From a virus (Duplodnaviria > Heunggongvirae > Uroviricota > Caudoviricetes), in the IMG/VR virus record IMGVR_UViG_2541047434_000040: a stretch of 5,115 nucleotides of DNA. One strand, written 5' to 3'. The position numbers were made by a program, and so were the translations under genes. Shown in pieces: positions 449 through 763 of the stretch. Positions within the stretch are counted from its first letter, which is position 1. Each line of letters begins with the position of its first letter. The notes under the pieces are model-generated. The model ran no database searches. It worked only from the letters and a program-made list of their open reading frames with translations, and was not told where the DNA came from.

Positions 449-477
449 TTGACACTGGTTATCCATACAGATAAAAA
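449..477 (+). promoter_or_regulatory. Sigma70-type promoter for the DinI-like gene: -35 TTGACA (449..454), 17-bp spacer, -10-like TAAAAA (472..477)
   Basis: Perfect -35 hexamer; A/T-rich -10 candidate at optimal spacing; about 40 nt upstream of the ATG at 515. Confidence 0.5.
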
Positions 478-481
478 TAAC

Positions 482-501
482 ACCTGTACATAACTACAGT
501 T
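482..501 (+). promoter_or_regulatory. LexA (SOS) box, ACCTGTACATAACTACAGTT, overlapping the predicted transcription start
   Basis: CTGT-N8-ACAG palindrome with A/T-rich centre (CTGT 484..487, ACAG 496..499); lies between the -10 and the RBS of a DinI-family gene, as expected for an SOS-regulated gene. Confidence 0.55.
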
Positions 502-514
502 ACAGGAGGGTGTT

Positions 515-763
515 ATGCGTGTTGAGATCTGTATCGCTAAAGAAAAAATCACTAAAATGCCAAACGGTGCTGTGGATGCGTTAAAGGAAGAATTAACCCG
601 ACGCATCAGTAAACGTTATGACGATGTAGAGGTGATCGTAAAAGCCACCAGCAACGATGGCCTTTCTGTTACGCGCACCGCCGATAAAGATTCAGCTAAA
701 ACTTTTGTTCAGGAGACGCTGAAAGATACCTGGGAGTCTGCTGACGAGTGGTTTGTTCGCTAA
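515..763 (+). CDS. DinI-family DNA-damage-inducible protein (prophage-encoded DinI-like, 82 aa)
   Basis: AGGAGG RBS at 504..509, 5 nt before ATG. Translation [10 protein letters not shown]...[17 protein letters not shown] shares the DinI pattern (MR-E--IAK, A-DAL--EL-RRI, LSV, QET--TWESAD-WFV) with E. coli DinI from memory; tandem TAATAA stop. Confidence 0.9.

Follow-up and report, generated by a model that had tools for sequence, protein, structure and literature searches.

A probable SOS-controlled DinI cargo cassette at the tail-fibre end of a VT1-Sakai-type lambdoid prophage

The DinI protein of Escherichia coli sits in the groove of the RecA filament, and cryo-electron microscopy together with mutagenesis indicates that the same groove serves LexA, UmuD and lambda CI (PMC9926225). 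A hydrophobic pocket of DinI, formed by L13, L21, W71, W77 and F78, receives F203 of RecA, and is accompanied by an acidic patch of E24, E69 and D76 (PMC9926225). Relatives of this gene are also carried by prophages. In the Salmonella prophages Gifsy-1 to Gifsy-3 the dinI homologues are preceded by functional LexA boxes; they accumulate upon treatment with mitomycin C, and nalidixic acid induces them 4.6- to 23-fold (PMC3121763, PMC8072944). In a microarray study, c0943, a dinI-like gene of an E. coli prophage, changed in step with sulA, dinI, umuD and recN (PMC2817434). Here we describe a locus of this type in the IMG/VR virus record IMGVR_UViG_2541047434_000040, a stretch of 5,115 nucleotides that we term the window, in which a gene for a DinI-like protein lies on the plus strand behind a promoter that begins at position 449. 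We consider it very likely that positions 449 to about 881 form a self-contained DinI cargo cassette under SOS control, carried at the tail-fibre end of a VT1-Sakai/CP-933V-type lambdoid prophage whose insertion site is mlrA/yehV.

The closest described counterpart is phage VT1-Sakai, the Shiga toxin 1 (Stx1) prophage Sp15 of E. coli O157 Sakai, which resides in yehV (GenBank AP000400.1). The whole window aligns with it at 99.1% DNA identity with 2 gaps, and positions 300–1130 are 100% identical. When the features of that record are placed on the window by subtracting 2701 from the record coordinate, it already annotates 449–477 as 'putative promoter of H0001 and H0002 genes', 482–501 as a misc_binding feature 'LexA protein, putative SOS box' and 515–763 as H0001, 'DNA-damage-inducible protein I'. 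An exact-sequence cluster look-up identified the protein as UniProt DINI1_ECO57, 'DinI-like protein Z3305/ECs2939 in prophage CP-933V'. Moreover, a standard polymerase chain reaction primer for the left yehV junction, used in insertion typing of Shiga toxin (Stx) phages, lies inside the DinI-like gene (PMC8309913). The gene, its promoter and the SOS box are therefore already known, having been described with the sequencing of VT1-Sakai, and what we add is limited to a second LexA box, quantitative scores, the boundaries of the cassette and the retention of the RecA-contact residues. The elements of the cassette are as follows, with LexA boxes scored by a heterology index (HI):

449 to 454, plus strand: -35 hexamer TTGACA, read from the sequence.
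453 to 472, plus strand: predicted LexA box 1, CACTGGTTATCCATACAGAT, whose core CTGG-N8-ACAG at 455–470 fills the spacer between -35 and -10 (HI 9.21; paralogue comparison).
472 to 478, plus strand: -10 region, either TAAAAA at 472–477 (17-nucleotide spacer, the pairing given in GenBank) or AAAAAT at 473–478 (18-nucleotide spacer, from a promoter scanner).
482 to 501, plus strand: predicted LexA box 2, ACCTGTACATAACTACAGTT, whose core CTGT-N8-ACAG at 484–499 lies over the predicted transcription start (HI 8.20; the SOS box of AP000400.1).
504 to 509, plus strand: Shine-Dalgarno sequence AGGAGG, 5 nucleotides 5' of the ATG, read from the sequence.
515 to 763, plus strand: gene for the DinI-like protein of 82 amino acids, with an ATG start; the same as WP_001261937.1, DINI1_ECO57, Z3305/ECs2939 and VT1-Sakai H0001.
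784 to 828, plus strand: stem-loop GGCTGG...CCAGCC in the 3' untranslated region of dinI, near-invariant across paralogues (-11.5 kcal/mol, z-score -2.95).
832 to 881, plus strand: cassette terminator, a hairpin at 832–862 with a U-rich tail, weakened in this copy (paralogue comparison and folding).

A preliminary description of this DNA, made from the letters alone, had proposed a DinI-family gene with a perfect TTGACA -35 and a CTGT-N8-ACAG LexA box over the predicted start site, and each of these is recovered here. The promoter scanner pairs TTGACA with AAAAAT at 10/12 matches, and from this promoter transcription would start near 484; across the window as a whole, promoter-like hits are at chance level, with 3 found versus 2.2 expected. 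The CTGT-N8-ACAG of box 2, which begins 7 nucleotides beyond the -10, is the sole such site in the window, where 0.07 would be expected by chance and 13 of 200 shuffled versions contain at least one. Box 1 is absent both from the annotation of AP000400.1, which has box 2 only, and from the preliminary description. The centres of the two boxes are 29 bp apart in the window and 28 bp apart in the other subfamily of these promoters. Either placement, between the -35 and the -10 or over the predicted start, would block RNA polymerase. A further observation at the same promoter is a perfect 8-nucleotide inverted repeat, ATAACACC (477–484) and GGTGTTAT (509–516), which brackets box 2, overlaps the start codon and occurs only in the subfamily to which the window belongs; were it part of the transcript, the mRNA 5' end could base-pair with the ribosome-binding region.

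To score the boxes, for which the E. coli LexA consensus is TACTG(TA)5CAGTA (CTG-N10-CAG), we used a Lewis-type HI matrix built from 21 LexA boxes, each of which was confirmed at 0 mismatches across 13 regions of the MG1655 genome (dinI, recA, lexA with two, uvrA, uvrB, dinG, sulA, umuD, recN with three, dinD, sbmC, yebG, ruvA, dinB, uvrD, ydjM with two, and cho). As this matrix differs from the Lewis 1994 matrix, its values are only roughly comparable with published ones. On leaving each of the 21 verified sites out in turn, their HI lay between 0.65 and 10.69 (median 6.47), and both boxes of the window fall inside this range. Thus, scoring of the 20-mer at 482–501, which the preliminary description had put forward as a check, places it among real sites. 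Box 2 is the best-scoring position of the window and box 1 the second, with the third at 13.67; in a K-12 background of 116,766 positions read in both orientations, only training sites reach an HI of 9.21 or better. Published HI values of 8.5–9.4 belong to uvrD, dinG, dinB and ydjM, all of which are LexA-dependent (PMC11228462). Allowing for the approximate nature of the index, both boxes roughly resemble genuine moderate-affinity E. coli operators of this class, and we infer that LexA binds at the two sites.

The scores are complemented by the conservation of the two operators. Our comparison set comprised 80 related loci on viral contigs, two phage records and the window, and the loci with enough upstream DNA gave 27 distinct upstream sequences. 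Despite three unrelated upstream flanks among these, paralogue homology starts abruptly at the -35. TTGA(C/T)A is kept in all 27; the CTGT and ACAG arms of box 2 are likewise invariant in 27/27 while its inner positions vary; and the CTG...CAG arms of box 1 are kept in 26. The TAAAAAT of the -10 region and the Shine-Dalgarno sequence are conserved as well. Most paralogues have a perfect CTGT-N8-ACAG as box 1 (HI 3.9–6.4) and TACTGTATACAAACACAGTA as box 2 (HI 2.6).

At the other end, the close paralogues all share about 100 nucleotides 3' of the gene, namely the stem-loop followed by an intrinsic terminator, after which homology stops; beyond this point the neighbouring genes differ and are often on the other strand. 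The terminators of the paralogues show compensatory changes in the stem, a clean U-run, folding free energies of -16 to -21.5 kcal/mol and z-scores of -4.3 to -6.2. Because homology breaks both at the -35 and after the terminator, the segment from 449 to about 881 is best described as an autonomous 'moron' cassette, with its own promoter and what is predicted to be its own terminator, breakpoints at its ends, and a location between the tail-fibre genes and the attachment (att) site. The stem-loop at 784–828 could be a stability element, a small RNA derived from the 3' untranslated region or some other functional RNA element. An Rfam scan of the whole window at E-values up to 1 returned four sub-threshold chance hits, none of them on the plus strand between 449 and 900, and hence no known small RNA or leader.

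The cassette is widespread. Promoter and gene together are present in 1878 of 5426 complete E. coli genomes (35%), with up to 8 copies per genome, and the protein is found in 133 phage records. Among eight other phage DinI homologues of 36–68% identity, which come from Escherichia, Klebsiella, Aeromonas and Salmonella phages, seven have a LexA box (HI 0.9–8.9) that ends 13–19 nucleotides 5' of the ATG: those of PhiR12_2, BP-4795, Klebsiella Kp4884-1, Aeromonas pAEv1818, Salmonella FSL SP-016 and SEN34, and mEp237. YeP3 is the exception: its dinI comes second in an operon. Only the tail-end lineage has the two-box layout, whereas in the Gifsy-like lineage a single box covers the -10; mEp237, SEN34 and FSL SP-016, in which the gene is in the Gifsy-like position, form a separate single-box lineage at 36–42% identity.

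Several lines of sequence evidence support the assignment of the protein to the DinI family. It matches Pfam PF06183 (DinI) over the full profile, 1–63 of 63, as a single domain with an E-value of 1.2e-19 and 70.8 bits against a cut-off of 24.2, and a phmmer search against the Protein Data Bank (PDB) recovers E. coli DinI (1ghh/7ywa) with an E-value of 1.1e-12 over residues 1–81. K-12 DinI and the window protein are 47% identical (alignment A1). The equivalents in this alignment of the eight RecA contacts of DinI are M15, L23, W73, W79 and F80 together with E26, D71 and E78, of which 5 are identical and 3 conservative. As the contact residues are retained, binding to RecA filaments is the most likely activity of the protein. 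A single-sequence AlphaFold2 model, with a predicted local distance difference test score (pLDDT) of 77 and a predicted template modelling score (pTM) of 0.58, has the order strand 2–8, helix 9–13, helix 17–34, strand 39–45, strand 51–56 and helix 58–76.

Published work on homologues shows that prophage dinI genes are induced in a LexA-dependent manner and how DinI binds RecA; the sequence features, with their scores and conservation, and the limits of the cassette are observed directly here. On this footing we propose the following course of events. The promoter, with TTGACA and TAAAAA(T), would be a strong sigma-70 promoter with two LexA operators, one in the spacer between -35 and -10 and one over the predicted start. 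In undamaged cells the LexA of the host would occupy these operators and keep the promoter shut. Upon DNA damage, RecA filaments would trigger self-cleavage of LexA, and the cassette would be transcribed with the rest of the SOS regulon. Its 82-residue product would most likely bind in the groove of filaments of RecA on single-stranded DNA and stabilise them; at high dosage it would compete with LexA, UmuD and CI-type repressors for that groove. The outcome would be additional, phage-supplied DinI activity from up to 8 copies per genome. The LexA control in this scheme, which the preliminary description had offered as its interpretation, is supported by the HI scores, by the operators conserved in 27 promoters and by the boxes in seven of the eight homologues, as well as by the published experiments on Gifsy dinI. 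That the gene affects prophage induction is reasonable but unsupported.

Some observations weigh against this account. Both boxes of the window are weaker than those of most paralogues (HI 8.2 and 9.2 for boxes 2 and 1, versus 2.6 and 3.9–6.4), box 1 having CTGG in place of CTGT, and repression may therefore be leakier in this copy. The host prophage looks partly decayed, with gene J divided among three frames and a broken YkgJ-like gene downstream of the cassette. Non-polar deletions of the dinI homologues in Gifsy-1 and in Gifsy-3 did not significantly alter prophage induction (PMC3121763). The literature on Z3305/ECs2939 and on DinI-like genes in transcriptomes of enterohaemorrhagic E. coli, including the supplements of PMC11125564 and PMC5931665, yielded no LexA-binding or expression data for the gene. 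Finally, a Foldseek search with the single-sequence model has 1ghh and 7ywa as its top two PDB hits (probability 0.94), yet with a template modelling score of only 0.35 and a root-mean-square deviation of about 10 Å; the DinI assignment therefore rests on the sequence evidence.

Downstream of the gene, the region 764–899 holds the stem-loop and the terminator and no open reading frame (ORF), and is followed by two further features:

900 to 1120, plus strand: degraded remnant of a YkgJ-family (CxxCxxCC) gene, identified by Pfam and by BLASTP against an intact copy; VT1-Sakai H0002 corresponds to 920–1120.
1096 to 1116, both strands: predicted bidirectional terminator, a hairpin with U-runs on both strands, where the dinI-side unit meets the convergent tail-fibre genes.

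The intact 109-residue copy of the YkgJ-family gene at a related locus (L011, 386–715) matches Pfam PF03692 (5e-11), while the ORF of the window has no Pfam hit; the two are 68% identical over 31 residues by BLASTP, and the Cys motif is lost in the remnant. From its original ATG at 900 only 7 codons can be read before a stop, and the ORF annotated as H0002 is an out-of-frame leftover. Hence, the DinI gene does stand apart from the tail genes, as the preliminary description had stated, but it is not alone on its strand, which also carries this remnant at about 900–1120. A LexA-like half-site at 887–906 (HI 13.7), just 5' of the remnant, was rejected as a chance occurrence: it is unconserved, and the intact copies score above 20. 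The cassette terminator of the window, with one stem mismatch and an interrupted U-run, folds at -9.1 kcal/mol (z-score -1.1), and because of this weakness read-through to the terminator at 1096–1116 is possible in this copy. The latter hairpin, which was missed by a simple terminator scan, folds at -19.7 kcal/mol (z-score -4.3) on the plus strand and -23.1 kcal/mol (z-score -5.1) on the minus strand.

These downstream features bear on a different or complementary reading of the locus, in which the LexA promoter mainly serves the downstream cargo and dinI is a leader, the YkgJ-like passenger having decayed here and being elsewhere intact or replaced by a type III effector. AP000400.1 does assign the promoter to both H0001 and H0002, and the weak terminator after dinI in this copy might let transcripts through. 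Further, in L011 the intact CxxCxxCC/YkgJ-family ORF lies about 25 nucleotides past the terminator on the same strand without a LexA box of its own (HI above 20), phage BP-4795 has a 'putative avirulence protein' gene after dinI on the same strand, and the gene that matters functionally in the LexA-controlled operon of the Gifsy prophages is the antirepressor downstream of dinI (PMC3121763). However, most paralogues have a strong intrinsic terminator right after dinI (z-scores to -6.2), cassette homology ends at that terminator with variable content, often on the other strand, thereafter, and in the window it is the dinI ORF that is intact with its RecA-contact residues while the downstream gene is a pseudogene. 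We therefore regard a leader role for dinI as rather unlikely. The Gifsy precedent might also be taken further, to a LexA-controlled antirepressor module of the Gifsy dinI-gfoA/gftA-irsA or 186 Tum type that directly induces this or a neighbouring prophage, given that LexA-controlled antirepressors are found in physical linkage with DinI homologues in Gifsy-1 to Gifsy-3 and that the second half of Tum is DinI-like (PMC3121763). We reject this on anatomy and consider it exceedingly improbable: the protein is a DinI domain only, without a Tum-like N-terminal half; no antirepressor ORF is fused to or directly 3' of the DinI sequence, the next ORF after the ORF-free 764–899 being the YkgJ-family remnant; the locus is at the tail/att end and not in the replication-to-Q region of the Gifsy module; and the homologues that do occupy the Gifsy position (mEp237, SEN34 and FSL SP-016) belong to the separate single-box lineage.

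One might also suppose that the palindromes arose by chance or are the sites of another regulator, or that the cassette is an inert relic, such that the gene is not SOS-regulated or is nonfunctional in this strain. The recurrence of CTGT-N8-ACAG in shuffled windows, the chance frequency of promoter-like hits, the degradation of both boxes relative to the paralogues and the broken J and YkgJ-like genes nearby could all be cited in its favour. Nevertheless, two LexA-type sites with centres 29 bp apart coincide precisely with the core promoter of a DinI gene, their arms persist while the spacers vary across the 27 distinct promoters, and the layout with a box before the ATG recurs in distant phage homologues and in chromosomal dinI. 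As the prophages that carry the cassette have unrelated flanks around it, a phage-specific repressor is unlikely too, and the ORF is unbroken, with 100% identity across the 15 E. coli genomes that match best. Accordingly, we hold chance or decay to be a very improbable explanation, and favour the LexA-controlled DinI cassette.

As such, the locus is a textbook case of prophage cargo under the SOS switch of the host, and the analysis adds little beyond its correct annotation. Its practical weight comes from the cassette being very common and being carried on Stx phages, and from its product, which should act on the very RecA groove that triggers cleavage of LexA, UmuD and phage repressors. A bolder and, in our judgement, unlikely proposal is that the up to 8 LexA-gated DinI-like cassettes on various lambdoid prophages, Stx phages included, jointly brake or time the co-protease activity of RecA. 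If true, they would together determine the threshold at which antibiotic exposure leads to Stx-phage induction, toxin release and SOS mutagenesis. Such a brake or timer would fit the reported association of a prophage DinI-like gene with the later gain of quinolone-resistance mutations (bioRxiv 2023.06.20.545734). In any case, the second LexA box and the defined boundaries offer precise targets for experiments on Stx-phage induction, toxin output and antibiotic-driven mutagenesis.

The remainder of the window places the cassette in its genomic setting, an E. coli O157-type chromosome segment that joins btsS (yehU) and mlrA (yehV) to the tail end of a lambdoid prophage:

222 to 289, plus strand: 5' remnant of mlrA/yehV (MALYTIGEVALLCDINPVTLRA...), severed by the prophage insertion; a RefSeq pseudo-coding sequence in the related genome L001 and the yehV' misc_feature of AP000400.1.
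270 to 289, strand not assigned: attachment-site core, the junction of prophage and host within the truncated mlrA/yehV; the misc_recomb 'attachment site of phage VT1-Sakai' of AP000400.1.

The first 1130 nucleotides of the window, which include the DinI ORF, are shared at 100% identity by the 15 E. coli genomes with the best matches, most of which are O157:H7. In L001, btsS/yehU lies directly upstream of the mlrA/yehV remnant, and the RefSeq labels are a truncated mlrA fragment and a 'DinI-like family protein', followed by tail-fibre, Lom and J genes on the minus strand; the minus-strand Pfam matches of the window are Phage_fiber_C, phage_tail_N/Collagen, Ail_Lom and Ig_GpJ_C. The DinI gene thus lies between the att core and the tail genes of the opposite strand, in agreement with the att-proximal cargo position suggested for it earlier. 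Between the att core and the dinI promoter there are direct repeats, at 308–392 and 404–436, of two types: three copies of a TCGACGAAGATCG-like repeat, and TG(T/C)CCCATA(C/A)A / ATGCCCCAT with two copies in the window. An extra ATTGATGCCCCAT copy was read by eye, rather than counted by a tool, in the upstream sequence of BP-4795. These repeats may be arm-type sites for the integrase or accessory factors.

At the far end, the C-terminal part of the tail-tip gene J (3448–5115, minus strand) lies in three frames, with ORFs at 4420–5064, 3996–4544 and 3448–3948. Elsewhere, an intact gpJ is annotated in L001 and a truncated J has been noted in VT1-Sakai; the split in the window reflects either real frameshifts in a defective prophage or assembly errors. 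A short ORF at 1131–1400 (minus strand) comes directly after the collagen-repeat tail-fibre gene at 1402–2715 (minus strand). Both carry Phage_fiber_C, which in the fibre forms its own C-terminus, and the short ORF looks like a duplicated or alternative fibre-tip cassette.

Among known systems, VT1-Sakai H0001, CP-933V Z3305 and Sakai ECs2939 are the same gene as that of the window, with an identical protein, att site, promoter, SOS box and coding sequence; there is no substantive difference in the gene, and the record differs only in having no annotation of box 1 at 453–472. The dinI homologues of Gifsy-1 to Gifsy-3 (STM14_3210, STM14_1156 and STM14_1439) are prophage DinI-family genes too, with a LexA box 19 nucleotides from the ATG (HI 3.9–5.3). 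There, however, dinI is the first gene of a dinI-antirepressor-irsA operon located 3' of the replication genes and has a single box, whereas the gene of the window has two boxes, lacks an antirepressor and is part of a cassette that is bounded by a terminator and lies at the tail/att end. Chromosomal DinI of E. coli (b1061; 1ghh, 7ywa) shares family and size with the window protein, in which each of the eight RecA-contact positions is identical or conservatively replaced and which has two 2-residue insertions relative to it. K-12 dinI is also LexA-regulated, with a box 19 nucleotides 5' of its ATG, but unlike the prophage promoter it has a single box over the -10 (TTGTCA...TATAAA); homology between the two promoters was rejected in view of these differing layouts. 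Tum of phage 186 and the tum genes of PSP3 and Fels-2, which are split, are likewise LexA-controlled phage genes with DinI-like sequence (PMC3121763). Tum is a protein of 146 residues with an antirepressor N-terminal half and a DinI-like half, while the window protein is the DinI domain alone. Phage BP-4795 (L003, 137–1908) has the same promoter and a 61%-identical DinI, and has lost the CAG arm of box 1 (ACAA). Its 'putative avirulence protein' gene follows 3' of dinI on the same strand without the shared terminator region, an arrangement that raises the possibility of SOS-linked effector expression in that phage.

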